A stretch of DNA of 64,000 nt, taken from contig UQMV01000006.1 in assembly GCA_900542315.1 (NCBI GenBank), forward strand, positions 4,211-68,210, read 5' to 3'. This document shows positions 2,639 through 38,529 of the stretch, one piece after another. The stretch's first letter is position 1. Each line of letters opens with the position of its first letter. Both the position numbers and the translations under genes were made by a program. This stretch comes from an uncultured Collinsella sp. (GTDB lineage Bacteria; Actinomycetota; Coriobacteriia; Coriobacteriales; Coriobacteriaceae). Below the pieces are notes generated by a model. That model did not search any database. It worked only from the letters and a program-made list of their open reading frames with translations, and was not told the origin of the DNA.

Positions 2639-4615
2639 CTAGTTGGTCGTACCGGAATCGTCGCCCGTGCTCGTGCCCGAGCCCGAGCCCGAACCAGAAA
2701 GTGCGACCGTCAGCGTAATCGTGCTGTCGGTGGACTGCTTTCCAGTGGGGGAGACGCCCGTAACGGTGGCATCCTCGTTACCGCTTACGGGATTGCCGTT
2801 CTGGTCACAGAAGCCAATGTTATAGAAACCGGCGTTGTTGAGCGCGGTAACGGCGGCGGAAATGCTCTTGCCGTACAGGTTGCCCGGGACGGTGGCCTTG
2901 CCGGACTTCTTGGCGATGACGACGGTAATCGTGGCGCCGGGCTTCTGCTTGCCGCTGGGGTTCCAGCTAATCACGGTGCCCTCGGTAACCGAGTCGTTCT
3001 CCTGGTAGCTCACGTCGACGCCAAAGCCTGCCATATCGAGGGCGTTGCGCGCCTGGGCCTCGGTCATGTCGGTCAGGTCGGGGACGGACGTGGTATCCGG
3101 GCCGCTCGAGACCTTGTACGAGATGGTCGTGCCCTTCTCGACTTCCTTACCGGCTTCGGTGCCCTGATCAAAGACCTGGCCCTCATCGGCCTCGTTGGCC
3201 TCCTCGGAGGCGCTGCCCTTCAGGCCAACGCTTGCCAGCGCGGCTTCGGCCTGGTCCTTGGTCAGGCCGACAAGCTGGGGAACCTCAACCTTCTCGGAGG
3301 GCTTGGGGCCCTTGGAGATTACCAGGTTCACCTTGGTGCCCTTGGCCTTCTTGGTGTTGCCGTTGGGCGTCTGCTCGGCGACCTTGCCCTCGTCGACATC
3401 GTCGTTGTAGCTTTGGTCGATGGTGCCGAGCTCGAGGCCGGCTTCCTTGATCAGCTCGACGGCAGTCTGCTGATCCTTGCCCAGCACGTCGGGCACGGTG
3501 ACCTGCTCGCCGCCAAAGAGCCCTGTGGCAATGGCCACCACGATGCCGATGACGGCAACGGCTGCCACCACGGCGGCGATGATCTTGTTCTTGTTGGATT
3601 TGGGCTTTTCGACCTCGTAGGAGCCGGTGGAGCCCGAAACCGAGCTGCGGGCGGTATTCTGGCCGCTCACGCCCGAGACGGGACGCACCATGGCGCGCGT
3701 CTGATCGGAAAGTTCGCGAGTCTTGGTGGCGCCCAGTTCACCGGGGGCGCCGATGATGCGCGTGGGCTCCGAGATGTTGACGGTATGGCCCGACAGGTAG
3801 CTGTTGAGCACCTGACGCAGCTCGTCGGCGGTTTGGAAGCGGTTTGCCGGGTCCTTCTCCATGCACTTGAGGATGATGCGCTCAAGGTCGGCGTCGACAC
3901 CGGAGTTGATCTGGCTCGGCGGAACAGGCAGCTCGTTGACCTGCTTGAGTGCGACCGAGATAGCGTCGTCACCGTCAAAGGGAACGCGGCCGGTGGCGCA
4001 CTCGTACATCACGACGCCCAGCGAGTAGATATCCGAGGTGGGGCCGAGGTCCTGACCGCGGGTCTGCTCGGGGCTGACGTAGTGGGCGGTTCCCAGCACG
4101 TTGTTGTCTTGCGTGAGGTGGCTGTTCTTGGCGCGCGCGATGCCAAAGTCCATGACCTTGATGTTGCCGTCGGGCAGCACCATGATGTTCTGCGGCTTGA
4201 TGTCGCGGTGGATGATCTCGTGCTTGTGGGCGACCGAGAGTGCAGAGCTAATCTGCGAGCCGATCTGGGCGACCTTCTTGGGGTCGAGGGCGCCGTGGCT
4301 CTTGATACCGCTCTTAAGGTCGGTGCCGCGCAGGTACTCCATGACGATGTAATAGGTGTCGCCGTCCTTGCCCCAATCGTAGACGCCCACGATATAGGGG
4401 GAGGAGAGACCGGCTGCTGCCTGGGCCTCCTGCTTAAAGCGTGCGGCGAAGGTTGCGTCGCCAGCATACTGCGGCAGCATGATCTTGACGGCTACCGTGC
4501 GGTTGAGGACCTGGTCCTGTGCACGATAGACGGTCGCCATGCCGCCTGTCCCCACCTTATCCTTGAGGAGGTATCTTCCCCCGAGGACCCTCTGTTCCAT
4601 TCCTGCTCCTAACAT
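2639..4615 (-). CDS. pknB: Ser/Thr protein kinase PknB with four C-terminal PASTA repeats
   Basis: Hanks kinase motifs (GxGGMATVY, VAVK, HRDIKPQN, DFG, SPE), a single TM segment, and repeated PASTA-like modules. It is the last gene of the conserved fhaA-fhaB-pstP-rodA-pbpA-pknB cluster. Confidence 0.9.
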   Translation of the reverse strand: MLGAGMEQRVLGGRYLLKDKVGTGGMATVYRAQDQVLNRTVAVKIMLPQYAGDATFAARFKQEAQAAAGLSSPYIVGVYDWGKDGDTYYIVMEYLRGTDLKSGIKSHGALDPKKVAQIGSQISSALSVAHKHEIIHRDIKPQNIMVLPDGNIKVMDFGIARAKNSHLTQDNNVLGTAHYVSPEQTRGQDLGPTSDIYSLGVVMYECATGRVPFDGDDAISVALKQVNELPVPPSQINSGVDADLERIILKCMEKDPANRFQTADELRQVLNSYLSGHTVNISEPTRIIGAPGELGATKTRELSDQTRAMVRPVSGVSGQNTARSSVSGSTGSYEVEKPKSNKNKIIAAVVAAVAVIGIVVAIATGLFGGEQVTVPDVLGKDQQTAVELIKEAGLELGTIDQSYNDDVDEGKVAEQTPNGNTKKAKGTKVNLVISKGPKPSEKVEVPQLVGLTKDQAEAALASVGLKGSASEEANEADEGQVFDQGTEAGKEVEKGTTISYKVSSGPDTTSVPDLTDMTEAQARNALDMAGFGVDVSYQENDSVTEGTVISWNPSGKQKPGATITVVIAKKSGKATVPGNLYGKSISAAVTALNNAGFYNIGFCDQNGNPVSGNEDATVTGVSPTGKQSTDSTITLTVALSGSGSGSGTSTGDDSGTTN

Positions 4616-4732
4616 AACTATTCGCTCAACGATGTGTGTAGTACCTACGATGTGGCCGCTGGGGCCATGTGGCGCGTTGCCGCTAACTCTTCGGTCGCGG
4701 CGCGCCTCGGGTGTCCGATTCGATCACGGGCG

Positions 4733-7612
4733 TCACGCTCCCTGGGCGGCAAGCGCCGCAGTCAGGACGATGCCGGCGATCTTGGCCGCCTCGACGTCGT
4801 GTTGGTCGTAATCCTCCAAGGCCACCGAAATGGCGACCGTGGGTGAATCGTAAGGTGCGAAGCCGACGAACATCGAGTTGACGTTGGTGCCGCCAGTTTC
4901 GGCCGAACCGGTCTTGCCGGCGACCTTGACGCCCGGGATCTGGGCATCGGTGCCGGTGCCGGACTGGACGACGGCGAGCATGGCCTGCTTGACCTGGTCG
5001 GCCGTGGCAGAGCTGACAGCCTGGCCCAGCGAACGGGACTGCGTGGTCTTAACCACGGTTCCGTCCGGGGCGAGTACCTGGGAAACAAAGTACGGGTCCA
5101 TGACCACGCCACTGTTAGCGATGGCGGCGGCAATCACGGCGTTTTGCATGACGGTGGTCTGCGGGCCGGGCGTGTGGTCCATGCCGACAGGCTGGCCGGC
5201 GCCGGCCCAGGCAGTCTCCCACTCGGTCATGAGCGACGGGTCGGCCATGATGGAGGCCGTGGAGGTCAGGTCCTGGCCGAGCTTCTGCCCGTAGCCAAAG
5301 GCGTTGGCAAACTGAACGAGCGTGTTTGCGCCAACCTCGTTTGCCACCTGGCCAAAGACGACGTTAGAGGACACGGCAAAGGCCTGTTGCAGGCTGATGG
5401 TGCCGTAGCTCTCGTTGGCAGAGTTGGTGACCGGTGCGTTACCAATGTCCATGGAGCCGGGCGCCTGGTAGGTGCTGGTCAGGCTGGCGGTGCCGGTCTC
5501 GAGTGCCGCAGAAAGCGTAACGACCTTAAACGTGGAGCCCGGGGTGTACAACGCGTCCATGGCGCGATCGTACATGGAGCCGTCCTCGCCGCCTCCCGCC
5601 TGCAGCAGGGCATCGATGTTGGTGTTGTCGTAGGTGGGTGAGCTGGCGCATGCGAGCACCGCGCCGGTGCGCGGGTCCATGACCACAACGGCGCCCTTAA
5701 AGCCCTTGAGAGCCTGTTCGGCGGCCGTCTGGATGCGGGAGTCGATGGTGAGTTTGGCGGTGTTGCCCGGCTGGTTTTGGCCCGCGAGCGACGCGATGGC
5801 GTTGTTCCAGCTGGAGTAATCCTTGGAACCGGTGAGCGTGTCGTTCATCACGCTCTCGATGCCGGCGGTACCGTACTGCTGGCTCACATAGCCAACCACA
5901 TGGGCGGCCAGGTTGCCGTTAGGGTAGGAGCGTACGTAGGTGCCGTCCTCCTGTTGCAGCGATTCGGCCAGCGTCACGCCGTCGGACGTGATGATGGAGC
6001 CGCGCTGGATGTACTTGGAACGGGCGATGGTGTGGTTGTTGGTCGGCATGTCCTGGTAATCCTTTGCCTTGATGACCTGGACATAGGTGAGGTTGCCGAT
6101 AAGGATGGCGAACAGCGCCGTAAAGGCAAACACGGCACGAGTCAGACGGTTGGCAAGTGCCACGCGGCCGAGCACGCCGGACTCTGGCGTGTCGAGCAGG
6201 CGACGACGCATGCGTGAACCCGCGGAGTGGTTGCCGTGGCTGTAGGAAGGTACGTTGGCAAAACGCGTACCGGTCGGGGCGGCGGCTGATGCGACCTGGT
6301 CATCGGTGATGGCGGCCATGGTGCCGGTGCCGGTGAGCTCGGCTTCGCGTCCGGTTGCCTCGTCGCCGGCGCGCAGCAGCAGCGCGACGATGATAAAGCT
6401 CGCCAGCAGCGAAGAACCGCCCTGGCTCATAAAGGGCAGGGTGACGCCGGTCAGCGGGATTAGGCGGGTTACGCCGCCAACGATTAAGAATGCCTGGAAG
6501 CTGATGGCCGCCGTAAGGCCGGTCGCGCTAAAGGCGGCAAGGTCGGACTTGGCGCGGGCTGCCGTGGTGAGGCCGCGCACGGCAAAAAGCATAAACAGGA
6601 TGAGCACGGCGCCGCCGCCCAAAAGGCCCATTTCCTCGCCGATGGCCGAGAAGATAAAGTCGGACTCGACGACGGGGATGTTGTTTGCCATGCCGTTGCC
6701 AATTCCGACGCCAACCAGGCCACCGTCAGCCAGCGAGTAAAGTGACTGTACGATCTGGTAGCCCTGGCCCTGGGCGTCCTTAAACGGATCGACCCAGACC
6801 TGAAAGCGCACCTGCACGTGCGACAGGAACTTGTAGGCGCCCACGGCTCCAACGGCCAGCAGCGCAAGGCCGATGATGACGTACGAAAAGCGTCCCGTGG
6901 CAACATAGAGCATCAGCAAAAAGATGGTGTAGAACAGGACGGCCGAGCCCAGGTCGCGTTCGAAGACGACGATGAGCAGGCACACGCCCCACACGGCAAA
7001 CAGCGGCAGCAGCAGGCGCAGGCGCGGGACCTTGAGGCCCAAGATCTTGCGATTGGAGATGGAGAGTAGCTCGCGGTTCTCGGCTAGGTATCCGGCCAAG
7101 AACAATACGATAAAAATCTTGGCGAACTCGCCGGGCTGGATGGTGAAGCCGGCGATGCGAATCCACAGCTTGGAGCCCGAGATGGTGGTGCCGATAAAGA
7201 TGGGCAGCATCAGCAAGATGATGCCGATGATGCCAAAGGTGTACTTGTAGCGCATGACCACATCGAGATTCTTGATCATCGCGAGCGTGCCCACCATCAG
7301 TGCCACCGAGACAAACAGAATGACGAGCTGCGAGATGGCGAGGGCGGGTGCCAGACGCGTTACGAACGTGATGCCGATACCCGAAAGCACAAAGACGATG
7401 GGCAGGATGGCCGGATCGGCACCGGGCGCCAGGATGCGCACGGCGATATGCGCCGCGGCGAAGGCGGCAAAGAGACCGATCGGCACGGCGAGCGTTTCAA
7501 ACGAGATGGAAGCGCCTGCGGTGAGCACGTACATCGCATACAGCAGGATGACGGGGAACGCCGAGGCGATGAGCAAGAGCATTTCGGTGTTGCGGCGACT
7601 CATAAGCGGCAC
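4733..7612 (-). CDS. SEDS glycosyltransferase (RodA/FtsW) fused in-frame to a class B penicillin-binding protein (PbpA-like transpeptidase)
   Basis: 959-aa ORF. The N-terminal ~430 aa form a polytopic FtsW/RodA domain. A linker leads into a PBP2-type module with its TM anchor and STFK and KTG motifs. No stop separates the two parts. Confidence 0.8.
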   Translation of the reverse strand: MPLMSRRNTEMLLLIASAFPVILLYAMYVLTAGASISFETLAVPIGLFAAFAAAHIAVRILAPGADPAILPIVFVLSGIGITFVTRLAPALAISQLVILFVSVALMVGTLAMIKNLDVVMRYKYTFGIIGIILLMLPIFIGTTISGSKLWIRIAGFTIQPGEFAKIFIVLFLAGYLAENRELLSISNRKILGLKVPRLRLLLPLFAVWGVCLLIVVFERDLGSAVLFYTIFLLMLYVATGRFSYVIIGLALLAVGAVGAYKFLSHVQVRFQVWVDPFKDAQGQGYQIVQSLYSLADGGLVGVGIGNGMANNIPVVESDFIFSAIGEEMGLLGGGAVLILFMLFAVRGLTTAARAKSDLAAFSATGLTAAISFQAFLIVGGVTRLIPLTGVTLPFMSQGGSSLLASFIIVALLLRAGDEATGREAELTGTGTMAAITDDQVASAAAPTGTRFANVPSYSHGNHSAGSRMRRRLLDTPESGVLGRVALANRLTRAVFAFTALFAILIGNLTYVQVIKAKDYQDMPTNNHTIARSKYIQRGSIITSDGVTLAESLQQEDGTYVRSYPNGNLAAHVVGYVSQQYGTAGIESVMNDTLTGSKDYSSWNNAIASLAGQNQPGNTAKLTIDSRIQTAAEQALKGFKGAVVVMDPRTGAVLACASSPTYDNTNIDALLQAGGGEDGSMYDRAMDALYTPGSTFKVVTLSAALETGTASLTSTYQAPGSMDIGNAPVTNSANESYGTISLQQAFAVSSNVVFGQVANEVGANTLVQFANAFGYGQKLGQDLTSTASIMADPSLMTEWETAWAGAGQPVGMDHTPGPQTTVMQNAVIAAAIANSGVVMDPYFVSQVLAPDGTVVKTTQSRSLGQAVSSATADQVKQAMLAVVQSGTGTDAQIPGVKVAGKTGSAETGGTNVNSMFVGFAPYDSPTVAISVALEDYDQHDVEAAKIAGIVLTAALAAQGA

Positions 7613-23982: not shown

Positions 23983-24893
23983 AACGCATGCGGCCCGGTG
24001 GCACTCAGACAAAGCGCGGCGCCGCGGTGCGCATACGACGCCGACTGGGCTTGGCGTCGCGGGCGTACGCACTGCTATCGTGCTCGCTGGTGCTGGTCAT
24101 AGCTGGCGTTTCTGCCTATGGCATGACCGTGCCGTCCATGATGCAGGCGCATGCCGCACGCGAACCGCGCGTGGGGCATGAGGTCAAAAGCGATCTGGGC
24201 ACCACGACTGGATATGCTTGGGCAAGTGTGGTCGGGCATATTGTGTTTGGCACCGACGATGCGGACGGCGCCGAGGCCCCGGACAACGAAGTCACGCTTG
24301 CCAATGGCAAAACCATCGTGCTCACCAACACCAAGATCATCGATCGATTGTCCAACAATAGCGTGGCGGCAACGGTGAATAAGGTCGAGCAGCAAAAGGA
24401 GCAGGACGCCCAGCAGTCCGGAAAGCCCGGTAGCTCGGATACTTCTGGCTCCGGCTCGGATTCATCGAGTTCGGGCGGCGGCTCTGGGTCGGGTTCCTCT
24501 ACCGGAGGGCCTGGAAACGGCGGCTCGACGGGCGGCAACACTGACAACGATGCAAACTCCGGCGGCCTTTCCGCTGCTGAGGAAGAGAGCATTCACAGTT
24601 GGCTTGTGACCAAGTACAACATGCTCGACGGCTATGTTTCTCGTGCCAATGACGTGGTCTCGACCTATAACTCTACGGGAGATCCCAGGCCGTGCGACAG
24701 CCTGGTCGGGGAGATGTTTGTCATTCGAGCCGAGTTCGGTCGTCAGACATTCTCGCCCCGGTCAAGGTGGTATCAGCAGTATGCCAATCTGTGGGGCTGT
24801 TACACCAACCTATGTCAATGGGTCGGCCATTACGGCGATGATGACGTCGCGCTCGGTAACTTCAACAATAACGTGGCGGCGCTTGCCCTATGA
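23983..24893 (+). CDS. secreted or membrane-anchored protein with a Gly/Ser-rich linker, unknown function
   Basis: A signal/TM segment and a GS-rich low-complexity region. Its stop overlaps the downstream kinase start (ATGA). The called ORF begins upstream at 23895. Confidence 0.45.
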
Positions 24894-26308
24894 TGACCGA
24901 TCTTGCATCCACCACACCACAATCGCTCGGTCGCGATCCCATGGTCGGCCTGCGCCTGGCGCGTGTCGACGGGTTTGAGCCGGCCATTGCGCTCGGTCAG
25001 GACGAACTGCCTGCCTATCTGCGTCGTTTTACGATACTGTTTGCCGACGATGCCACCATGTGCCGTGGCGGTATCGGCCGCGTGACGCGTGCTGTCAACG
25101 CCCAAGGCGAGGACGTTGCACTCAAACAGCTCATCTTGCCGACGCGCGATGAGTTTGACGACGATGCCGCCCATGAGTCGCTGGTCGCCAAGTTCAAAGC
25201 GGCATTTCGCGAGGAATATGAATGCCATCGCGCCCTTTCGGGCCTTAAGGGCTTTCCCCGCCTCTATGGCTGGGGCGAGGTTGACGGTGTGCCTGCAATT
25301 GTCATGGAATGGGTCGAGGGCGAGACGCTCGCCCGCTTGCGCTCGCGACTCGCCGTGGACGATGCCGGACGCCTATCGCCGCTTGTGGCGGCGCGTCTGG
25401 GTCGCGACCTGTTCGATCTGCTCTGCCGTATGAGCCTGGTGGGCGAGGGCTTTGTCCATCGCGATATCTCGCCCGCTAATATTATGGTGCGCACGGCGCG
25501 TCTACCGCTTGACCGGCAGCTTGCCGAGGGCACCTTTGACCTGTGCCTGATCGACTTTGGCTCATCGCTGGCGCTTGAGCCAGCGTCGGCCGTGGCCGGT
25601 ACCGGCGGCAAGGCATCCTTTACCGAGCGTTATGCCACGCTGCGTCGCGCGACGGTTGCCTATGCCCCGCCCGAGATGCTCACCGACGATATTCCCGACC
25701 TGCGTGCTTTGCGTATGTCGCCGGCGATTGACGTCTATGCCGCGGCAAGCACGGTTTACGAGCTCATTGCCGGCGTCGCGCCATACGAAGCCGCGCCGAG
25801 CACTTCGGGCGCCTCGGGTTCGCGCAAAAGGACGCGCGACATCGCGAGCCCCTACCGTCTTAAGATGGACACGCGGCCCGACTATCCCATTGGTGCCCAT
25901 GCGCCCGGCTGCGATTTGACTCAACTGCTTCGTCGTGAGCCCGATGTGGCGCTCGCCGCGGCCGAGCAGGCCCAGCAGCTAGGGCTTGAGCCGGATTCCG
26001 AAGAGCTACGTGATGCGCTGGCGTTTGTCGATGCCCAGCTGTTCGACGTGGTGATGGCCTGTCTGTCCAGCCATCAAAAAGATCGTCCCGAGCCGGCGGC
26101 GGTCGAGGCGGCGCTCTCGGCGTTTTGTGACCACTATGCGCAAAATGTCGGTCGTTCGCTCCGCGGCGAGCCGCTCACGCCGTGCCCCATGGATGCGTCT
26201 GGCCGCGCGGTTCGTCGCGCGCTGATGGTCGGCGCGACGGTCGTCTGTGGCGTGGTTTGGGCTGTGTCGTGGTTTCGGCCGCGCTGCTGGCGTCGGGCGC
26301 TCGCGTGA
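24890..26308 (+). CDS. atypical Ser/Thr protein kinase (third Hanks kinase in the window)
   Basis: Kinase motifs with substitutions: Gly-loop CRGGIGRV, VALKQL, HRDISPANIM, DFGSS, APPE. Confidence 0.75.
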   Translation: MMTDLASTTPQSLGRDPMVGLRLARVDGFEPAIALGQDELPAYLRRFTILFADDATMCRGGIGRVTRAVNAQGEDVALKQLILPTRDEFDDDAAHESLVAKFKAAFREEYECHRALSGLKGFPRLYGWGEVDGVPAIVMEWVEGETLARLRSRLAVDDAGRLSPLVAARLGRDLFDLLCRMSLVGEGFVHRDISPANIMVRTARLPLDRQLAEGTFDLCLIDFGSSLALEPASAVAGTGGKASFTERYATLRRATVAYAPPEMLTDDIPDLRALRMSPAIDVYAAASTVYELIAGVAPYEAAPSTSGASGSRKRTRDIASPYRLKMDTRPDYPIGAHAPGCDLTQLLRREPDVALAAAEQAQQLGLEPDSEELRDALAFVDAQLFDVVMACLSSHQKDRPEPAAVEAALSAFCDHYAQNVGRSLRGEPLTPCPMDASGRAVRRALMVGATVVCGVVWAVSWFRPRCWRRALA

Positions 26309-26799
26309 CGGCGACTTTGGGATCGCTCGTGTGGTCTGGGTCGCTACCGGGTATTATTGCCGCACTGGCGTTGGCGCTGCCAGGCATAGCCGGCGTTGCC
26401 GCGGGGGCACTTGCGCGCGATCGGCGCTCGGGCTTCCTGCAGGGTGTGCTTGCGCTTTCTGCCTGCGAGGTTCCGGTGCTGGTTGTGGCTGCATGTAGCG
26501 TATTTTCCCAACGCGCCGTGATGGGCGGCCTTGTTGCCGCTCTGGTTGCAACCTATACGCTTACGTGGTTTTTGCTTGCTTTGCCTTTGAACTTCCCGTT
26601 TCGGCACCGCGACGCACAAAAGCCCAGATGGCGACTCCGCTTGCCGGTGGAGCCGCAGCTGCCTGTACTTTTGGCGGACCTGTCGAAGTATCGTCTGATT
26701 CTATTTCTACGACCAAGGAGGCCTAGGTCATGGCATCTCAAGTTGAGCTCACCCCATGCGGGGCCATGTTTGACATCTTTAAGCGCGCGGCGCATCTGA
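26305..26799 (+). CDS. hypothetical polytopic membrane protein (or frameshifted membrane tail of the upstream kinase)
   Basis: A GTG at 26305 overlaps the kinase stop (GTGA); the product has ~4 TM helices. An alternative reading is a +1 frameshift of the kinase. Confidence 0.35.
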   Translation: MTATLGSLVWSGSLPGIIAALALALPGIAGVAAGALARDRRSGFLQGVLALSACEVPVLVVAACSVFSQRAVMGGLVAALVATYTLTWFLLALPLNFPFRHRDAQKPRWRLRLPVEPQLPVLLADLSKYRLILFLRPRRPRSWHLKLSSPHAGPCLTSLSARRI

Positions 26800-27667
26800 G
26801 CCATATCGAGCTGTGCGGCTTGGTGCTTTCGTCCCGTCCGCTCGCCGACGGCCGCAGCCCGCAGAGCCGAGCCGCCGATCGCTCCTGGGTCTCGCGCTTT
26901 ATCGTTCGCGCGCCGGTCGGCACGCTTCAGCAGCGCCACTTTGCCGAATACGGTACCTCGGCTGCGCGTATTATGTCGCAACTGGCCCTGCGCCAGCGCA
27001 ATCCCATGGACTCCACGGCTGTGATCAATATGGTGTGCGGTTCTGCAGGTGAACCGATGGTACGCGCGCTCGAAGAGTGCCACCAGGACACGAATCTCTA
27101 TCGCAACGCGCTCGATCGCCTGTCCCAGGCGGCGGAACTCATGCCCGCCGAGCGCGCCGAGGCCGTGCTGGTGCTGTTTGTCGCCGTCGGTTGTTCGGCG
27201 GATGTGCGGTCCTCGGTGAACTATGCCATCGACTATGCGCACGCGACCTGTGGCGGAGGCACATCCACGCCGCGTTCGCTTGGCATGTCGATGACCGCGG
27301 GCGAACGCGAGCCCGCGCCGGCGCATCCGTTGGGCCTGCTGCGCGTGCAAAACGGCTTTGTGGTGAGTGCCCCGCGCTGGATTCAGCCGAGTGAGCAGGG
27401 TGTTGAGATTGGCGCGCTGGCCACTGGTGAGGGCGATATTACCGACGTCGGCGATGATGTCTCGGCTCGCCATGCCCACATCTAGTGCGATGCTCAAAAT
27501 ATCTGGCACGTCGAGGACTTGTCGTCCACCAACGGAACCGTGGTGGTAAACGGGGCCACGCGCGTTTGCATTCAGGTCGAGCCCGGCCGTTCCGCCCAGC
27601 TCAATCCCGGCGACGAGCTCAAGCTCGGCGAATCCACTACCTATGCCATCCTCTTCGGTGCCCTCTA
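26730..27667 (+). pseudogene. FHA-domain protein gene interrupted by an in-frame amber codon inside the FHA domain
   Basis: GGAGG RBS and ATG at 26730. The frame reads through TAG at 27483-27485, where the paralogous copy at 34210 has TGG (Trp). Downstream, the FHA motifs (DLSSTNGTVVNG...LKLG) continue in frame to 27667. Confidence 0.6.
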
Positions 27668-27790
27668 GCCGGCAGTTAGGGACGTTCCTTTTCTGCCGGC
27701 ACTTGGGGACACTCCTCGGCGCGCCAGAGCCAGTCGCCTGGGGATGGAGAGGCCATTTTGGCCCTTGGCGGTCAGTCGGGGCGAAACTAG
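27240..27790. repeat. direct repeat copy 1 (~550 bp, ~88% identical to 33985-34525), bounding the low-GC island
   Basis: Manual alignment of the FHA 3' coding portion plus ~120 bp downstream. Copy 1 has a 9-nt in-frame insertion and the amber codon. Confidence 0.8.
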
Positions 27791-28010
27791 AAGATCTTTC
27801 CGATTCGCGGCTGTTCATGCTTGTAGAGCATCTAAAACAATAGGATGTTATTCTGGAATATGCCGGGTGCGTGAACTTGCCTGTCTTAGCCTTAATAAGG
27901 TATAGGGGAGTTTGGCTCAGGGGTTCCGTCTTGTTCTTCAGCGCAGTATTGTGGGACAGATTTGCTGAGATTGGCGCCTTACACCGCAGGGCGCACGGAA
28001 GGCTCTCGAT

Positions 28011-28620
28011 TTGTGTTCTGGCCCCAGAATACAGGGCCTGATACTTACCAACTGTGGCATGGATGTAACATCTGTAGAAATCAACCCTTTTGTTGTCGAC
28101 CTTTGTAAGAAAAACACTGCCATCAACTCTTTGGATGACGAAACTAGGGTGCTTGAGGGGAGCCTTTACTCCCCTCTGAGAGATGACTCATGTTTTTCGC
28201 TTGTCGTTGTGAATCCTCCGTTACTGCCGATTCCGGATGAGATTCCTTATCCCTTCGTTTGAGATGGAGGACAATCGGGTCTGGATAAAACACTTCGTAT
28301 TCTTAAGGGTGGCGATACGCATTTAGAGAAAAACGGTAAATACTGCTAATAGGGGTGACGACGATGGTGCAGGGGCGACCCGCGATGCTCTCATCAATAC
28401 GTCGGATACTTGGGAAATCAGGTCTAGATGCATGTATGATGATGCTGTGTGGCTATTCAATTAATCCGCGTTCCGAATGGGTGCAGGGTATAGCTGCGAC
28501 ATCGTATGCTTTTGACCCGGCGCGATACTCAGATATTTCTGAGGCGGTTGACGAAGTTTATACGCACTATGCCGCGCAAGGCGTTTCGGAAGTTTGCACA
28601 TCTACGTTACGGGCTTAGGT
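28011..28620 (+). pseudogene. HemK/PrmC-like SAM-dependent methyltransferase remnant (frameshifted and truncated)
   Basis: Fragments FSLVVVNPP...DGGQSGLDKTLRIL are split over two frames, with no intact N-terminus. Confidence 0.45.
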
Positions 28621-28743
28621 TTCTTCAAGCGAGCAGGCCGGTTGCGTTATTTCGAGCGATTTTTCTAGTCTAGACGACAAAAGGCAAAGGATTTGATGGG
28701 TATAAAACGCGGACGTTTGTGGGCGGATGCTCAAATCTATTGT

Positions 28744-28787
28744 GGCAATCGGGCGGTTGAAAAAGATATTTCAACCGCCCGATTGCC
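28744..28787. promoter_or_regulatory. perfect 19-bp inverted repeat with a 6-nt loop upstream of the ABC exporter gene
   Basis: ggcaatcgggcggttgaaa-aagata-tttcaaccgcccgattgcc. Confidence 0.5.
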
Positions 28788-28933
28788 AGGTTCGTCGGAG
28801 GAGATGTCCGATTCCGACTCTCTTGTAGGAAGAGCTTGAGATCGTATTGGCCCAAGGCAATCTTAAAGCAGTCTCATTGGCAAATCTTCGCTCCTGTTGT
28901 GTTGAGGTGTAAGGTATCAGTGATTGATGTTTT

Positions 28934-30586
28934 GTGGCGGGTAGATTGGGGCCTTCCTTGATTCGATGCGTTCTCTCGAGGTTCATCAGAGCAAAAGGGG
29001 CTTTCGTCTTCATTGCTATCACGGTGATTGGAACCGCTCTCTCCTATGCCATGCCATACGTGAACGGGAAATTCTTAGATTTTCTTCTCGGTAACCGCAG
29101 CGAAAGAGACGCCGTACTCTTCGCGCTCCTGGTTGCGTCAATAGGAGTTTTCTCCACCCTCTTTACTTATTTTGCAGGAACACTTTCCATTCGCATAACC
29201 ACGAGACTTTCCTTTGATCTTCTCAGGGAGGCCGTCTTGCGTTTTGAAAGAGACGATTACTTGGTGAGTCGGACCATCGATCCAGCCTATACAACGCAAC
29301 GGATTATTTCCGACTCCAGCGTGGTCTCATCCTTCGTTTTGGCGAATTTTATCAGTGCGCCGCTGTCCATTGTAGCCATTCCCATCGTATTGCTTATCAT
29401 ATGGTCAATTGATTCAACTCTCGCGGTGTTTTCCATCATTCTCCTCATCGTGTATTTCTGTGTAATTACTGGGTTGAGGAAACTTTTGTATAGGGTCACG
29501 TATGAGAAGAAAGAGGCGGACAGCGCCTTTTACGCCGCAATTGCATCGCAGCTTAATCAGATTCTCAACATTCAACTGACATCTTCGTACGGCAAGAGCG
29601 AACAAGCGCTCGACGCTGGGTTTAAGAGCTATTTTCCCAAAGTTTTGCGCTCCGGAAAGCTATCATATTCTCTGACATCGCTCGATGGTCTTTTCGCAGC
29701 GTTGTTTCAAGCGGTGATACTTGTTGTTTCCGGAGTACGAATCATTAACGGAACTATGTCAATAGGCGAGTACACTATCATCGGTACATACTTCGCGGTT
29801 CTCTTTAAGACTTTGAAAAGTATGATGTCATTGTTCAAATCCTATCAAGATGCCAAAGCATCATGGGATAGGACGGCTATCGCGACGAGAGAAAAGGAGA
29901 GATCGGGGTGGAATCGGACCGATTTAGCTAAACTCGATGAAATAAATGACATTTCGGTATCTGATTTGGAATTCTCGGTTGCCCTTCCAGACGGATCTGT
30001 CCGAGAGGTCCTCGGCGGGTTTTCTTTCAAGTTTTCCGGTCCTGGTACATATTGCATAGTTGGGGAAAACGGAAGAGGCAAGACGTCACTTCTTTACTTG
30101 ATGCTCGGGCTATACTCATCGAAAGGCAAAGTAAAATACAACGGCGTGCCAATCGAAGAATGCGACTTGGATTACATACGTGCGAGAGAGATATCGTGCT
30201 GCCCACAGTCGTGCTTCGCGCCGGACGAAACGGTGAAAGAGCTGTTAGAGTATTTCGACACGCCCTTTTCTTCCTATCACCGGGGTGTAGATGGCCTACT
30301 TTCGCTGGAAAACAGCGTGAAGGAGTTGCTCGGGAAACGTTGCTCCGCGCTTTCGGGCGGTGAGCTGCGCCGAGTGTACTTATGGTCGGCGATTTCACGC
30401 AAGTCGTCAGTTTTGGTACTCGACGAGCCCACGACTGGGTTAGACGCTGTAAGCCGCGCCGAGCTTGCGGCCTATGTTAAGCGCAACAAGCAAAGCCAGC
30501 TGATCATCGTTGTCTCTCACGATGACGAGATGGTCGGCGCGGTAGAAGGGGTAGTGGATTTAGGCAGCATGTACCAGGGTAAATGA
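28934..30586 (+). CDS. ABC exporter, fused transmembrane and ATP-binding domains (peptide-exporter type, no C39 domain)
   Basis: Six N-terminal TM helices; Walker A GENGRGKT, signature LSGGELRR, Walker B VLVLDEPT; GTG start; AT-rich codon usage like the rest of the island. Confidence 0.85.
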   Translation: MAGRLGPSLIRCVLSRFIRAKGAFVFIAITVIGTALSYAMPYVNGKFLDFLLGNRSERDAVLFALLVASIGVFSTLFTYFAGTLSIRITTRLSFDLLREAVLRFERDDYLVSRTIDPAYTTQRIISDSSVVSSFVLANFISAPLSIVAIPIVLLIIWSIDSTLAVFSIILLIVYFCVITGLRKLLYRVTYEKKEADSAFYAAIASQLNQILNIQLTSSYGKSEQALDAGFKSYFPKVLRSGKLSYSLTSLDGLFAALFQAVILVVSGVRIINGTMSIGEYTIIGTYFAVLFKTLKSMMSLFKSYQDAKASWDRTAIATREKERSGWNRTDLAKLDEINDISVSDLEFSVALPDGSVREVLGGFSFKFSGPGTYCIVGENGRGKTSLLYLMLGLYSSKGKVKYNGVPIEECDLDYIRAREISCCPQSCFAPDETVKELLEYFDTPFSSYHRGVDGLLSLENSVKELLGKRCSALSGGELRRVYLWSAISRKSSVLVLDEPTTGLDAVSRAELAAYVKRNKQSQLIIVVSHDDEMVGAVEGVVDLGSMYQGK

Positions 30587-31179
30587 TGACAAGTGTAGTG
30601 CTACCCAACTGGCAGAGATAACAAAAAGGCGATGCAGATGCACGTAGCATTCAGGCGGTTCGGACTCGGTGCCTTCACGCCATCGCAACGCTTTCAGATA
30701 TAGTTCTCGTTCTCTTACTAAAGGAAACTTTAGTCTACGTCATCTTGTCGAGACAGAGGTGAAGCGAAGTGTTGTCGCGACGTATCTTATTCCAGGTGGC
30801 TCAGTATCAGCGTGAGAATCGCACCAAAGTGTACTTACGATTCTCGTGTCCCACGGACAACATGAGCTGAGCATTGAGGTTCCACCCTTTGCTGCAACTA
30901 CACGGGGTTGGACGGCAATGAATATGCCGGGCCGCATACCACGCGCAGCGGGGGTCCATGTCCCAGTATGTTGCCTACAGCAGCCTCGATGTCCACGCAC
31001 ACATCATCTCTGCCTTCGCGTTCAATCCATTTGCCGGAGAGTGCGAGGGTTGCCAGGCCGTAGAATTCGAGCCGAACAAATGAAATGCGGTATCAGCGCA
31101 TAGGATTAAACTGACGATTGCTTTGCACTGAGAATACGCTTGGAAAGCCGCTATGGGTGGCGGCCCGGGTTAAATAGAG

Positions 31180-31220
31180 AAGCCCGTCCGATCACTTTCA
31201 TGTGGCGAACGGTCGGGCTT
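31180..31220 (-). terminator. hairpin terminator candidate downstream of the peptide genes
   Basis: aagcccgtccg...cggtcgggctt stem with a T-containing tail on the minus strand. Confidence 0.35.
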
Positions 31221-31286
31221 CTTATTCCACTTGCCAATGCTCGGCTCATATTGGAAGAAAGCTACGCTAATGTTTGCGTGACACTC

Positions 31287-31394
31287 CTATTTTCTCCGAA
31301 GAAAGAGTCGGATAATGAAGAATAGAATTAAAAAAGGTGCCAGATATAACGCAAGTATAAAGGCTAATCCAACGAGACCTTGCAATAATGGCAT
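31287..31394 (-). CDS. 35-aa hydrophobic single-TM peptide (MPLLQGLVGLAFILALYLAPFLILFFIIRLFLRRK)
   Basis: ATG preceded by a GGGAGG RBS at optimal spacing. It sits just downstream of precursor gene B and is shorter than the ORF-track cutoff. Confidence 0.3.
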   Translation of the reverse strand: MPLLQGLVGLAFILALYLAPFLILFFIIRLFLRRK

Positions 31395-31472
31395 AACTCC
31401 TCCCAGACACGAGATTTTGGTATTTGTTCCCATCTTATTCTGAATTGGACCAAATAGTTCCTAGCCACAAAA

Positions 31473-31652
31473 CTACTCGTCAACTGGATCGCACCAATCT
31501 GCTGGCAAAACACAGCTTGATTCTTTATCGACATAGCACCAATCCGCAACAGGGCACTCGGCGATGTCGTAAAAATTGCATATATCAACTCCAAGACAAC
31601 AAGGCTCAACGGGAGGATGTTCATTTGAACCAACAGGATGGATATGCTTCAT
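31473..31652 (-). CDS. RiPP precursor peptide B (59 aa): MKHIHPVGSNEHPPVEPCCLGVDICNFYDIAECPVADWCYVDKESSCVLPADWCDPVDE
   Basis: ATG with an AAGGTGAGGAG RBS and seven Cys. It shares the MKHIHP N-terminus and core motifs with peptide A, and its frame is not in the ORF track. Confidence 0.55.
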   Translation of the reverse strand: MKHIHPVGSNEHPPVEPCCLGVDICNFYDIAECPVADWCYVDKESSCVLPADWCDPVDE

Positions 31653-31682
31653 AACAGCTCCTCACCTTAATCCAATTAGAGA

Positions 31683-31886
31683 CTACGTTTGATCAATGCC
31701 ACAGTGATCTACAACGCAGATGCTGCCGCCATCCATGTCATAGTCGCAGTAATCGTATGCACCACAGCCATCTGCTTTATCATAAACAGTACAGATGTCA
31801 GTAATGCCCAAGAGGCAGTCAAAAGACATCGGCTTCACGCCTGCCTCGTCGCCACTTCCTGGATTAATCGGATGAATATGCTTCAC
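31683..31886 (-). CDS. RiPP precursor peptide A (67 aa): VKHIHPINPGSGDEAGVKPMSFDCLLGITDICTVYDKADGCGAYDYCDYDMDGGSICVVDHCGIDQT
   Basis: GTG start 7 nt after an AAAGGGAGG RBS; six Cys and eleven Asp in the C-terminal 48 aa; lies immediately downstream of the rSAM gene. Confidence 0.55.
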   Translation of the reverse strand: MKHIHPINPGSGDEAGVKPMSFDCLLGITDICTVYDKADGCGAYDYCDYDMDGGSICVVDHCGIDQT

Positions 31887-32055
31887 GACTACCTCCCTTT
31901 GAGTGCAGAAAAACCTCAATATTGTGTATAACAAACCAAGATGTCTAGTTCACCATATTTCTAGAATGGTTTCGGCGAACGTAGCAATAAGCTTCGCAGA
32001 CGGTAATCAGAAGAACGAACACCTCCACAATGGTGACAGCAATGCGCTGAACCGC

Positions 32056-33444
32056 TTATTCCGATACAGTAGCTTCTCGTTGATTTTTCTCCTGCGAAGA
32101 TGAGTGGCGGGAAATAAGGTCAAAAGCCATCTCGTAGCACATCTTTCTATATTCACATGATGCAGGGTGTAGACTCTTGGGCAAGTAGCCGTGCTCGTCT
32201 GCAGCCTCCCAGCTACAGCCCCCACCACAGAAAGACCGAGCCCAACAGTCCGTACAGTCAATTCTTTTTTCGACACTCTGACTCCAGTTTTCAATATACC
32301 TAGTTTCGTCAATTCCGGTGACGATGTTGCCCATTTTGAATCGCATCATCCCGACAAACCTGTGACAGGGGTATACGTCCCCTTCGGGAGTCACGGAAAT
32401 AAAACGCCTGCCAGCCCCGCATCCGACAAAGGCGATCCTGTTGCTCATAATCAAATCAACTGCAGTTTTCAATGTTCTAAACAAGGGCTTTTCCCCTTGA
32501 TCAATCTGTTTGAGATATTGATCCGCCAAATCTATTAGGCCCGCCCTGATTTTGTTTAATGAGTGTTCGTCGAGTTTGATATTCTCATCGAATGAGCTCA
32601 CGGGCGAGAAGTAAATCCTTCTGAAGCCCATCTCTTTAAACTGAAGATAGTCTTCAACAAGGTTACAGTTATTATTTGTTAAGGTCGCTCTTGCGCCGAA
32701 GGGGAACGACTCGGAAAAACGACGAACGTTTTTGTCGATATCGGAGAAAGAGCCGCCTCCCGTCTTGTACGGGCGCGATGCATCGTGCTTGCATCCTGTA
32801 CCATCGAGACTAATCAGAACAGAAAACCCGTGCTCCTTGAAAGAATTCACAGCAGTGTCATTCAAAAGCGTTCCGTTGGTCGTAATAGAATAGGTAAAGT
32901 TTCTATTGGGGTATATTCTTTTTGAATAGTCGACCGTTTTCCATATCAGCGGCTCGTTAATCATGGGTTCCCCACCAAAAAAGACGATCGCAAGCGTTTC
33001 GTTTTCCGATGAACTTGCGACGAGGTAGTCGACCGCCTTGAAGGCTATCTCGTCTGTCATCAGCAGAGGAGACGTTCCATAATCTCCTTTACCGGCAAAA
33101 CAGTAACTACAACCAAGGTTGCATGCATGTGAAACGTGGAGTTCGATGGATCTAAGTTTTCGAGGCGTGTCTTTTGTTAAGAAAGTCCGCTCAGACAATC
33201 GTTGATACTCATCAATGTCGTCTTCAAGTTCTGCTATGGTCGTTTGGTCGTAGCCTTTCGCAGCAAGTGACTTTGTTAGCAACTTCGAGTTGACCGTTCT
33301 TCCCGATGCTTCAAATATGCGAAGCGCATCTTCTGATGCTTGGTCAACCTGAAAGCAATTGCGAGTGACCTCATCGAAGCAGTAACGACGATCACTTACT
33401 GAGAAAAAATGCATACGTTCCTCAATTTCATGCTGGACTGGCAC
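32056..33444 (-). CDS. radical SAM enzyme with a C-terminal SPASM domain (peptide-modifying maturase, anSME/QhpD-like)
   Basis: CNLGCSYC (CX3CX2C) near the N-terminus; C-terminal Cys clusters (CGAG...PCHRF, CTDCWARSFCGGGCSW); GTG start. Confidence 0.85.
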   Translation of the reverse strand: MPVQHEIEERMHFFSVSDRRYCFDEVTRNCFQVDQASEDALRIFEASGRTVNSKLLTKSLAAKGYDQTTIAELEDDIDEYQRLSERTFLTKDTPRKLRSIELHVSHACNLGCSYCFAGKGDYGTSPLLMTDEIAFKAVDYLVASSSENETLAIVFFGGEPMINEPLIWKTVDYSKRIYPNRNFTYSITTNGTLLNDTAVNSFKEHGFSVLISLDGTGCKHDASRPYKTGGGSFSDIDKNVRRFSESFPFGARATLTNNNCNLVEDYLQFKEMGFRRIYFSPVSSFDENIKLDEHSLNKIRAGLIDLADQYLKQIDQGEKPLFRTLKTAVDLIMSNRIAFVGCGAGRRFISVTPEGDVYPCHRFVGMMRFKMGNIVTGIDETRYIENWSQSVEKRIDCTDCWARSFCGGGCSWEAADEHGYLPKSLHPASCEYRKMCYEMAFDLISRHSSSQEKNQREATVSE

Positions 33445-33930
33445 TAACCTTGTTTATTGTTGCGCAGCTATAAAAAACCACCAGCGGGGATTCGGTGTGC
33501 GGCCCAATCGGACTCCCAAAAGGTTCTATTTGAGACTGGCAAGCTTTGTGTTGTTGGCACTTCGACAGCGCTCTTTATTCCAACATGGAGCCTCGCAGTT
33601 TGAGTCGACTTGCCTCTGGAAGGTCCGATCTTAACTTGATTTAGGATGAAAACAGATTACAGGCGCGCTCCTCTAGAAAGAAAGGAAACCAATCGCCGCC
33701 TTTCACCAGGAAAGTTTTTATAGCCCACCTCGAGCAAAATGAAAGATGCGAGAGCGATTGGGGAACAACGCGAATCTCCCCTTTTGGGTGGGAGCGAGCC
33801 TTCAGCCACCGGCGAACGACTCGCCCTGGTCAGAATCTGGAAGTGGTGCCGGGCCGCTTGGGCCTCCCCGGTGACTTCGTGGGGCTTACCTGCCTGACGT
33901 CGAGGAGTACATCCGCAAGATTCGTTCCCT

Positions 33931-34404
33931 ATGCCGTTTGCTCTCACGCCCGCCTTAGTTTCAAGTCGGGCGAGCCGCCGCGCTCATGCGACCCGTGGCG
34001 GCGACACGTCGACGCCGCGCTCGCTGAGCACATCTTCGGTCGCGGGCGAGCACGAGGTCGCGCCGGCGCATCCGCTGGGACTGCTGTGCGTGCAAAACGG
34101 CTACGTGGTGAGCGTCCCGCGCTGGATTCAGCCGAGTGAGGAAGGCGTTGAGATCGGCGCGCTGGCAACGGGGGAGGGCGGCATCACCGACGACGTCTCG
34201 GCCCGCCATGCCCATATCTGGTGCGACGAGTCTGGCGCATGGTTTGTCGAGGACCTGTCGTCCACTAACGGCACCGTGGTGGTAAACGGGGCCACGAGTG
34301 TGTGTATTCAAGTAGAGCCCGGCTGCTCCGCCCAGCTCGACCCCGGCGACGAGCTCAAACTCGGCGAATCCACCACCTACGCCATCCTGCTCGGCGCCCT
34401 CTAG
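33931..34404 (+). CDS. FHA-domain ORF, a 3' paralogous copy with an intact FHA domain and a novel short N-terminus
   Basis: Homologous to 26730-27667 from HATRGGDTSTPRSL onward, with Trp where copy 1 has the amber codon. Its first ~18 codons derive from island-side sequence. Confidence 0.45.
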   Translation: MPFALTPALVSSRASRRAHATRGGDTSTPRSLSTSSVAGEHEVAPAHPLGLLCVQNGYVVSVPRWIQPSEEGVEIGALATGEGGITDDVSARHAHIWCDESGAWFVEDLSSTNGTVVVNGATSVCIQVEPGCSAQLDPGDELKLGESTTYAILLGAL

Positions 34405-34525
34405 CCGGCAGTTAGGGACGTTCCTTTCCTGCCGGTACTTGGGGACACTCCTTGGCGCGTCAGAGCCAGTCGTCCGGGGATGGAGGGACCATTCTGGCCT
34501 TTGGCGGTCACCCGAGGTAAACCTT
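33985..34525. repeat. direct repeat copy 2 (partner of 27240-27790)
   Basis: See copy 1. Confidence 0.8.
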
Positions 34526-34855
34526 TACCGCCCGCCTATATTTGTCGAAATTACACTTAACGGCGGGGTACAATAAACCCGCATGCGGATTTCCGTTGCG
34601 GGCGCTTCCCATCGCCGGGGCGTGCCCGGGAGCATCCGGCATGCGGCCTTTGCGGCGCTCGGTCATGTGCAAGACGGGTAGCTGGGCCTGTGGAGCGCGT
34701 GCAGCTCTCCTCGCCTCGGCATGCCTTCTCTCCACGCCATGTACCTGCCGCTGAGTCCGCCTGTCAGATGATCGGAAGCAACAACGAAAATCCCATCACG
34801 CCAACATCCCGGCGATCGCCGGGGCCTGTATACCTATATGAGAGGAGAGGGGTAT

Positions 34856-38395
<3,540 letters not shown>

Positions 38396-38406
38396 GTCTC
38401 CCGCCG

Positions 38407-38529
38407 CAGGATCTGAGGGCCAACCTTCGCGGACGTCCTCGGACATGAAAGAACCCCCGCTGCGCACTACGTGCGGCGGGGGTTCTTTCGTCCTGCGGAG
38501 TGTCCGCGAAGGTTGGCCCTCAGATCCTG
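38407..38529. repeat. ~120-bp compound palindrome immediately after PFOR, including a terminator-like inner hairpin
   Basis: Perfect 28-bp arms caggatctgagggccaaccttcgcggac / gtccgcgaaggttggccctcagatcctg flank an inner GC hairpin at 38447-38489. Confidence 0.7.

Follow-up and report, generated by a model that had tools for sequence, protein, structure and literature searches.

The locus and its precursor genes

A 64,000-nucleotide stretch of contig UQMV01000006.1 from an uncultured Collinsella sp. (assembly GCA_900542315.1, positions 4,211 to 68,210 of the forward strand) encodes two small peptides, PepA and PepB, next to a radical S-adenosylmethionine (SAM)/SPASM peptide maturase. The whole stretch is called the window here, and coordinates are those of the window. 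The genes are best read as part of a ranthipeptide locus resembling that of freyrasin, in which one maturase would make Cys-to-Asp thioethers in two substrates, accompanied by an ATP-binding cassette (ABC) exporter and a 35-residue membrane peptide. This reading is considered probable. The maturase and precursor genes are as follows.

32056..33414, minus strand: radical SAM/SPASM peptide maturase, 452 amino acids from ATG 33414
31683..31886, minus strand: pepA, A-type precursor peptide, GTG 31886 to TAG 31683, 67 codons, 67 amino acids
31473..31652, minus strand: pepB, B-type precursor peptide, ATG 31652 to TAG 31473, 59 codons, 59 amino acids

The two peptides are paralogs with ribosome-binding sites at matching distances from their starts. 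A preliminary description of this DNA placed peptide A at 31886-31683 and peptide B at 31473-31652 on the minus strand, and re-translation bears out these coordinates and the description of the peptides. PepA reads (M)KHIHPINPGSGDEAGVKPMSFDCLLGITDICTVYDKADGCGAYDYCDYDMDGGSICVVDHCGIDQT and PepB reads MKHIHPVGSNEHPPVEPCCLGVDICNFYDIAECPVADWCYVDKESSCVLPADWCDPVDE. Both genes lie downstream of the maturase, with 169 nucleotides from its stop codon to the pepA start and 403 to the pepB start. Re-inspection of the starts shows a Shine-Dalgarno sequence 5 nucleotides upstream of each gene, GGGAGG at 31897-31892 for pepA and GGTGAGGAG at 31666-31658 for pepB. The proposed paralogy is also confirmed, as BLASTP aligns the two at 40% identity (E 1e-10). 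Both start with K-H-I-H-P and end in Cys/Asp-rich cores, of 44 amino acids in PepA and 42 in PepB.

The ORF (open reading frame) tool extends pepA to TTG 31934, giving 83 amino acids, and a mechanical ORF starts the membrane peptide at ATG 31433. Both starts were rejected. Orthologs of pepA have an ATG exactly at the position of the GTG, in agreement with the Shine-Dalgarno site, and one locus has a stop codon upstream of the MPLL start of the membrane peptide. The shorter genes are preferred because of these ortholog starts, the Shine-Dalgarno positions and the upstream stop.

The apparent absence of pepB from the ORF track results from a length cut-off. At the default minimum of 60 amino acids, only 31364-31633 on the minus strand and 31424-31654 on the plus strand are listed over pepB, since the peptide has 59 amino acids. 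With the minimum set to 30, it appears as 31473..31652 on the minus strand. The preliminary description was thus right that pepB went unlisted, but the gene is not unannotated. NCBI and UniProt already contain both exact sequences, named "hypothetical protein [Collinsella]", and each of them occurs on at least 1000 contigs. A cut-off of 60 amino acids can hide precursors of peptides that are ribosomally synthesized and then post-translationally modified (RiPPs), as pepB shows.

Conservation and selection

Strong purifying selection acts on both peptide frames. A profile scan of species-representative genomes gave 80 loci, nearly all labeled Collinsella (including C. aerofaciens) or Coriobacteriaceae. 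The maturases of these loci are 96-100% identical and the flanking genes are identical in kind. At least 80 Collinsella genomes, each of species level, have the locus at a single chromosomal site. In public assemblies the maturase cluster comprises 4315 sequences. The peptides are covered by 72 of the loci. Frame-breaking indels beside a conserved radical SAM gene, the kind of change that the preliminary description said would speak against the peptides, were looked for in these 72 Collinsella loci and none was found in either pepA or pepB. The sole indel is an in-frame insertion of 6 nucleotides in the pepB leader (two loci), and one nonsense change costs PepA just its last two residues. Nearly all amino acid changes fall at leader positions 8-13.

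Comparison of the window with two more distant loci, L001 and L002, gives the same picture. Synonymous sites are saturated (proportion of synonymous differences, pS, about 0.9), while the proportion of nonsynonymous differences (pN) is 0.10-0.23 in the cores (0.11-0.23 for A, 0.10-0.17 for B) and 0.34-0.50 in the leaders. The peptide frames are free of stops in all three. In L001 and/or L002 the orthologous DNA of the competing overlapping frames is interrupted by 1-8 stops; only the antisense frame across pepB departs from this, as it is open in L002 too. The Shine-Dalgarno sites and start positions of the peptide genes are conserved. On this comparative evidence pepA and pepB are confirmed as genuine conserved genes, beyond what chance would be expected to produce.

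The A and B types are old and have been kept separately in several lineages. The maturase belongs to a small, unnamed clade with members at 73, 67, 56, 52, 48, 44, 43 and 40% identity; below 40%, identity falls to about 33%, where SCIFF maturases begin. An A-type and a B-type peptide lie together beside the orthologous radical SAM gene in five lineages, namely the window, L001, L002, L092 and L010 (enzyme identity 100, 73, 67, 43 and 40%, respectively). The assigned orthologs are these.

pepA orthologs: L001, L002, L092, L010 and P0138
pepB orthologs: L001, L002, L092 and L010

Since five lineages each hold one A-type and one B-type peptide, the duplication predates the divergence of enzymes that are now 40% identical, with both copies retained. 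The preliminary description attributed the difference between the peptides to natural variation within one RiPP class. The cores are indeed divergent, but that wording understates the matter, as A and B are old, separately conserved types and not the result of recent drift.

Gene order differs among these loci. In L001 and L002 the maturase is followed by the A-type peptide, the B-type peptide and a small membrane peptide. A convergent ABC exporter lies at the L002 peptide locus, and an ABC exporter is a conserved partner in L001 and L002. In L009, L010 and L092 (44, 40 and 43% enzyme identity) the two peptides are upstream of the enzyme gene. The L009 peptides are each other's nearest relatives when the cores are clustered, unlike those of the five lineages above, and L093 has a single precursor. 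The available sequence of L004-L008 (48-56% identical maturases) starts 110-330 nucleotides upstream of the enzyme, and no precursor is visible there except in L007. The L007 stretch (4357-6527, with a 48% identical maturase) has a second, different radical SAM/SPASM gene downstream, after which come a truncated A-type peptide, whose intact version is P0138, and a transposase. The loci of distant relatives contain an ABC ATPase with its permease and a CPBP/Rce1-like membrane protein.

The maturase

The maturase has the cluster ligands of a ranthipeptide enzyme. The ORF tool extends the gene to GTG 33444 (462 amino acids), and the true start is most likely ATG 33414, judging by agreement with the database representative P0001 and all homologs. 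Residue numbers below follow the 462-residue version. The radical SAM motif is C108-X3-C112-X2-C115 (CX3CX2C), which is invariant in 11 clade members, and the domain matches PF04055 with an E value of 2.3e-14. The ligands of the auxiliary clusters are C342, C360 and C410 for auxiliary cluster 1 (AC1) and C397, C400, C406 and C430 for auxiliary cluster 2 (AC2), and all ten cluster Cys residues are invariant in the clade. The SPASM Cys residues align with C344/C362/C413 and C400/C403/C409/C432 of CteB (ligand list from PMC10177961). The SPASM region shows the ranthipeptide pattern of seven Cys residues and two auxiliary [4Fe-4S] clusters, with three Cys ligands at AC1. In AC1 of the CteB type, the three Cys residues leave an open site where the substrate Cys binds (PMC10177961).

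Structural comparison also points to this kind of enzyme. The closest solved structure is CteB (5WGG/5WHY), with a phmmer E value of 1.9e-64 and Foldseek TM scores of 0.80-0.87 over 444-461 columns, the full length of the protein. The AlphaFold2 model has a mean predicted local distance difference test score (pLDDT) of 84.8. Its N-terminal domain (residues 11-81) has the topology of a RiPP recognition element (RRE), a winged helix of three strands and three helices, with strands at 11-16, 19-24 and 29-33 and helices at 35-46, 53-62 and 67-81 (pLDDT about 90). The domain is therefore predicted to be RRE-like, which is one of the features of the class.

Curated family models give the enzyme nearly equal scores, with PapB first. 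The NCBIfam scores are 273.2 bits for PapB (NF047865, cut-off 340), 267.4 for SCIFF (cut-off 425), 261 for the nif11-type model (cut-off 519) and 241.2 for QhpD (cut-off 453). True SCIFF maturases score 590-745 bits on the SCIFF model. Models of sactipeptide maturases score far lower with the Collinsella enzyme (RumMC 121 bits, StsB 65 bits).

No other single observation hints as strongly at a carboxylate acceptor, like that of freyrasin, as an Arg residue next to AC1. In the motif P-C360-H-R362-F-V-G, Arg lies two residues past the second AC1 Cys, and it is found there in all 17 clade members examined (PCHRF/Y). SCIFF maturases have Gln at the same position (C-H-Q) in 70 of 73 cases. In PapB the AC1 ligand C370 is two residues before Arg372 (PMC10177961), and Arg372 is required for cross-linking to a carboxylate residue (PMC9413430). 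PCHRFVG is also the reading at that spot of the papB gene given in the PMC8566587 supplement; the gene text is damaged by optical character recognition and only this stretch of it was trusted. By analogy with PapB, the Arg would favor an acidic acceptor.

Length changes occur in a T-tract at the beginning of the maturase gene. A run of six T residues lies right after the ATG (about 33406-33411, minus strand, codons 2-4). It has six T residues in 70 loci, seven in 5 and five in 2, so the maturase is frameshifted at its very start in 9% of the species representatives (7/77). These changes could be phase variation, decay or assembly error. Mid-gene indels are found in 4 of 71 maturases. Frameshifts of this kind are seen in loci L076, L080, L082 and L084 and proteins P0002-P0010, and the peptides of these strains are still intact. 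One example is a 468-amino-acid product in which the frame switches after residue 384, with loss of C397, C400, C406 and C430 of AC2 and C410 of AC1.

Peptide architecture

Each Cys in the core of PepA is followed by an Asp, and PepB has a similar arrangement. PepA has a leader of about 23 amino acids (MKHIHPIN...KPMSFD) and a core of 44 with six Cys and nine Asp residues. Its units are C-X5-D, C-X3-D, C-X3-D, C-X2-D, C-X2-D and C-X2-D. The PepB leader has about 16-17 amino acids (MKHIHPVG...VEP), and the core of 42 contains seven Cys, seven Asp and three Glu residues. There are six Cys in its orthologs. The PepB core comprises six C-X(2-4)-D units and the C-terminal sequence CDPVDE. All 11 family peptides tested have six Cys residues and an acidic residue (Asp or Glu) ahead of the next Cys, with a spacing of X2-X5. 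The invariant core columns of alignment A2 are Cys and Asp only (C32, D36, C41, D45, C47 and D50).

The peptide family has no functional annotation. When 1.84 billion representative proteins were searched exhaustively with the peptide profile, 46 clusters came up at E < 1e-3, with lengths of 51-108 amino acids, most of them 56-67. The leaders of those retrieved are MKHI(K)LLN-like, and their cores repeat the C-Xn-D pattern. One of them adjoins ABC and CPBP genes and a maturase of 33% identity in which the Arg motif is also present. No family member has a functional name or matches a Pfam or NCBIfam model. PepA and PepB themselves match no NCBIfam model at E <= 1, and their sole NCBIfam/Pfam match is a sub-threshold one to SapA.

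Comparison with known systems

The closest parallel is PapA/PapB of Paenibacillus polymyxa, which produces freyrasin, a ranthipeptide with six Cys-to-Asp thioethers at C-beta. Both systems have short leaders, the first Cys being at residue 19 in PapA and at 17-24 here, and both have six Cys-Xn-Asp units with the Asp on the C-terminal side of the Cys. The maturases share the arrangement of RRE, radical SAM and SPASM domains with three [4Fe-4S] sites (PMC9413430, PMC10177961, PMC12715619), and the PCHRFVG motif, in which Arg is essential in PapB, is identical. There are also differences. The maturase scores 273 bits against a PapB-family cut-off of 340, and the spacing is X2-X5 here but uniformly X3 in PapA. 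Two conserved precursor types are present instead of one, and the peptides have 59-67 amino acids, compared to about 50 for PapA (estimated from the mass in PMC12715619). The host here is a gut actinobacterium of the Coriobacteriia, and the similarity of the leaders is not statistically significant. By eye, KQINVIAG..VKEP..C resembles KHVVLIAG..VP..C, a likeness that involves only the 24 PapA residues compared.

The SCIFF system (CteA/CteB of thermocellin and Tte1186a/Tte1186; TIGR03973/TIGR03974) has matching cluster ligands and, in CteB, the closest structure. Like SCIFF, both precursor types have six Cys residues in a core of about 45. However, the maturase scores 267 bits against a SCIFF cut-off of 425 and the 590-745 of true members, the peptides match no NCBIfam model, and the enzymes differ in having C-H-R here and C-H-Q in SCIFF. 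CteA and Tte1186a show only a single Cys-Thr link (PMC8326336).

QhpD (TIGR03906), a homologous enzyme of the radical SAM/SPASM type, forms Cys-to-Asp/Glu thioethers, its substrate being the gamma subunit of quinohemoprotein amine dehydrogenase (PMC8172795). The Collinsella maturase scores 241.2 bits on the QhpD model (cut-off 453), and its putative substrates are stand-alone peptides of 59-67 amino acids with an exporter. There are no quinohemoprotein amine dehydrogenase genes nearby, the neighbors being the ABC exporter, small peptides and a methyltransferase remnant. The possibility that the peptides are QhpC-like enzyme subunits was rejected because the dehydrogenase genes are absent.

Two-component bacteriocins such as thuricin CD (Trn-alpha/Trn-beta) and the two-peptide lantibiotics resemble the locus in having two divergent peptides side by side with transport- and immunity-like genes. 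Thuricin CD uses two radical SAM enzymes, while a single maturase would serve both peptides here. It also differs in consisting of two sactipeptides with alpha-carbon thioethers (PMC8326336).

The locus is filed here within the ranthipeptides, as a sister clade to PapA/PapB, and not as a new kind of system. Cys-rich precursor genes adjoin the maturase in this class, and the adjacency is kept in L001, L002, L009, L010 and L092. Its variant features are the variable ring sizes that the spacing predicts, the two anciently conserved precursor types per maturase and the gut actinobacterial host.

Proposed mechanism and alternatives

The preliminary description saw two divergent candidate precursors for one maturase, and this is supported by the selection on the peptides, their intact frames, the pairing in five lineages, and the predicted RRE-like domain with its full set of clusters. 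The mechanism proposed is modeled on PapB (PMC9413430, PMC10739248, PMC12373016). The short leader (MKHI-x-P-I/V ... P) would dock on the RRE-like N-terminal domain of the maturase, and a core Cys thiolate would ligate the open iron of AC1. The 5'-deoxyadenosyl radical would then take a hydrogen from C-beta of the Asp that is C-terminal to the Cys, and a thioether would form between the Cys sulfur and the Asp C-beta. Six such rounds per peptide would give a string of small rings, as in freyrasin. PapB links Cys to C-beta of Asp and needs the acceptor to be C-terminal to the Cys (PMC9413430, PMC12373016), and it tolerates 0-6 intervening residues in vitro (PMC9413430). The PepA and PepB cores fit these rules. 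The single maturase would modify both peptides, the convergent ABC transporter would export the products, and the 35-residue membrane peptide probably provides immunity or an accessory function.

The side-by-side retention of an A-type and a B-type peptide, which goes back to long before the lineages split, makes it probable that both are required, perhaps as the two components of a bacteriocin or signal. A more specific and rather doubtful proposal is that they form an obligate two-component ranthipeptide. In this case one maturase would produce two different multi-ring Cys-Asp peptides that act jointly as a bacteriocin or signal, from a locus that is fixed in an abundant gut genus and is perhaps switched by the T-tract. 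If true, this would be the first two-component member of the ranthipeptide class. An ABC ATPase with its permease and a CPBP/Rce1-like protein form a set typical of bacteriocin immunity, and the presence of these genes in the distant loci favors, by analogy, an antimicrobial role.

Several points weigh against the freyrasin-like reading. The maturase is below the cut-off of all the NCBIfam models listed above, even that of PapB, its best-scoring one, and the acceptor specificity is consequently deduced from one motif together with the substrate pattern. Of the six units in each peptide, no more than two to four have the canonical C-X3-D spacing, n ranging from 2 to 5 overall. The family profile compared to the 24 recovered PapA residues (leader and first motif, PMC12715619) gives an hhalign E value of 0.066, which is not significant. 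About 15% of the species-representative genomes examined have a frameshifted maturase, suggesting that the locus is dispensable or switchable in some strains. No protease is encoded in the Collinsella island and the exporter has no peptidase domain, so the island offers no candidate enzyme for removing the leader. Promoter and terminator counts in the region are not above the shuffled expectation. Finally, the transcription, translation and modification of pepA and pepB are predicted from the sequence.

The main alternatives accept that the genes are real and differ on chemistry or function. Perhaps the most plausible, although it is the less favored view, is that the peptides are cross-linked as proposed but serve as a secreted signal, for example in quorum sensing, and not as an antimicrobial. 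A bacteriocin that varies among strains would not usually be close to fixation at a single chromosomal site, as this locus is across Collinsella, and L093 has a response-regulator gene fragment upstream. However, there is no sensor kinase or regulator in the island, the small membrane peptide right after the precursors is like an immunity gene, and the distant relatives carry the immunity-type genes mentioned above. It is unlikely that the peptides are radical SAM substrates with a different chemistry, such as alpha-carbon thioethers of the sactipeptide kind or a non-acidic acceptor, with the Asp residues serving for solubility or for metal or target binding. Regiochemistry cannot be fixed by sequence alone, and CteB was first taken for a sactipeptide enzyme before being reassigned (PMC8172795, PMC8326336). 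The score below the PapB cut-off and the varying unit spacing also fit this alternative. Against it, only Cys and Asp columns are invariant in the cores, and the Asp always lies on the C-terminal side of a Cys, the order that PapB needs (PMC12373016). Throughout the clade the PapB-type Arg is conserved without exception, while the Thr-linking SCIFF maturases have Gln, and the sactipeptide models score low.

Two further alternatives would remove one or both of the peptides from consideration. That only one peptide is functional and the other is a redundant or decaying duplicate is quite improbable. Extra precursor copies are common in RiPP loci, the L009 pair suggests lineage-specific duplication or homogenization, and L093 manages with one precursor. 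But core pN is equally low in the two types and both are intact in 72 of 72 loci. A decaying copy would not be expected to persist as one of two distinct orthologous groups, A and B, in five lineages whose enzymes are as little as 40% identical. That the peptide ORFs are chance or non-coding, the real genes being 31364-31633 on the minus strand and 31424-31654 and 31689-31931 on the plus strand, is hardly credible. The overlapping ORFs are longer and appear on the 60-amino-acid track, and ORFs of about 60 codons are frequent by chance. This explanation is refuted by the 72 intact loci, the low core pN and the stops in the competing frames; the conserved starts and Shine-Dalgarno sites and the paralogy of the peptides also contradict it.

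Collinsella species are among the commonest human gut actinobacteria, and no description of the locus or its product was found in a literature search. Should the prediction of a freyrasin-like locus prove right, two heavily stapled peptides, exported as a pair, would be widespread in the gut. The enzyme would be a second natural Cys-Asp thioether maturase, with native substrates whose ring sizes range from X2 to X5, and it would be of interest to those who use PapB as a peptide-stapling tool. To a RiPP specialist the locus would be expected rather than surprising, its interest coming from its ecological prevalence and possible two-component nature.

The genomic island and neighboring genes

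The peptide, maturase and exporter genes sit in an island of low GC content, 45-50% compared to 60-65%. Its other features are these.

31287..31394, minus strand: 35-amino-acid single-pass hydrophobic peptide MPLLQGLVGLAFILALYLAPFLILFFIIRLFLRRK, directly downstream of pepB, with the Shine-Dalgarno sequence GGGAGGAG just before ATG 31394
28934..30586, plus strand: ABC exporter of 550 amino acids in which transmembrane and ATPase domains are fused, convergent with the peptide operon (PF00664 and PF00005)
31918..31947, minus strand: promoter-like site TAGACA-18-AATATT in the 169-nucleotide gap between the maturase stop and pepA; weak, with only its position being suggestive
31085..31101, minus strand: terminator-like hairpin with a T-run, 186 nucleotides downstream of the membrane-peptide ORF; weak

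The membrane peptide is probably an immunity or accessory protein, and it has counterparts in L001 (8408-8581) and L002 (7988-8107). The exporter does not have an N-terminal C39 peptidase domain, as it covers only positions 150-664 of the model for peptidase-containing ABC transporters.

In appearance the island is an old insertion that either carried in the end of its target gene or duplicated it. It extends from about 27790 to 33990 and is flanked by imperfect direct repeats of about 545 nucleotides that are 86% identical (27245-27790 and 33990-34535). Both repeats comprise the 3' portion of an FHA-domain gene and the region downstream of it. In the left repeat an in-frame TAG stands where the right one has TGG, and the right copy is without the N-terminal part. 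The same flanks are found in 54-76 Collinsella loci. There is no tRNA or Rfam family in or near the island and no match in plasmid or phage collections, and no evidence was found that it is currently mobile. Among the Collinsella species representatives, the island maturase is 98.5-99.9% identical, compared to 95.7-98.5% for flanking host genes (26000-27200 and 34600-35800), a difference that selection could explain, as could recombination spreading the island.

Two parts of the island have no intact recognizable gene. At 28011-28618 on the plus strand, two or more frames together hold the remnant of a small-domain methyltransferase (PF05175, E 8e-5, with a VVNPP motif). None of the 59 loci examined has it intact (longest ORF at most 106 amino acids), and it may once have served the ancestral cluster as a tailoring enzyme and then decayed. 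The 700 nucleotides between the exporter and the membrane-peptide gene (30587-31286) are 96-100% conserved in 66 loci. No gene was recognized there, and an 85-amino-acid ORF within it has no Pfam match. The equivalent gap in L002 has 26 nucleotides.

Host genes lie on both sides of the island. A Ser/Thr protein kinase (PF00069) followed by FHA-domain genes occupies 24890-26308. On the other flank, 34838-38395 is an ORF of 1185 amino acids that we take, by eye, to be similar to pyruvate:ferredoxin oxidoreductase, and the long ORF antisense to it (34796-38467) is probably an artefact of high GC content.

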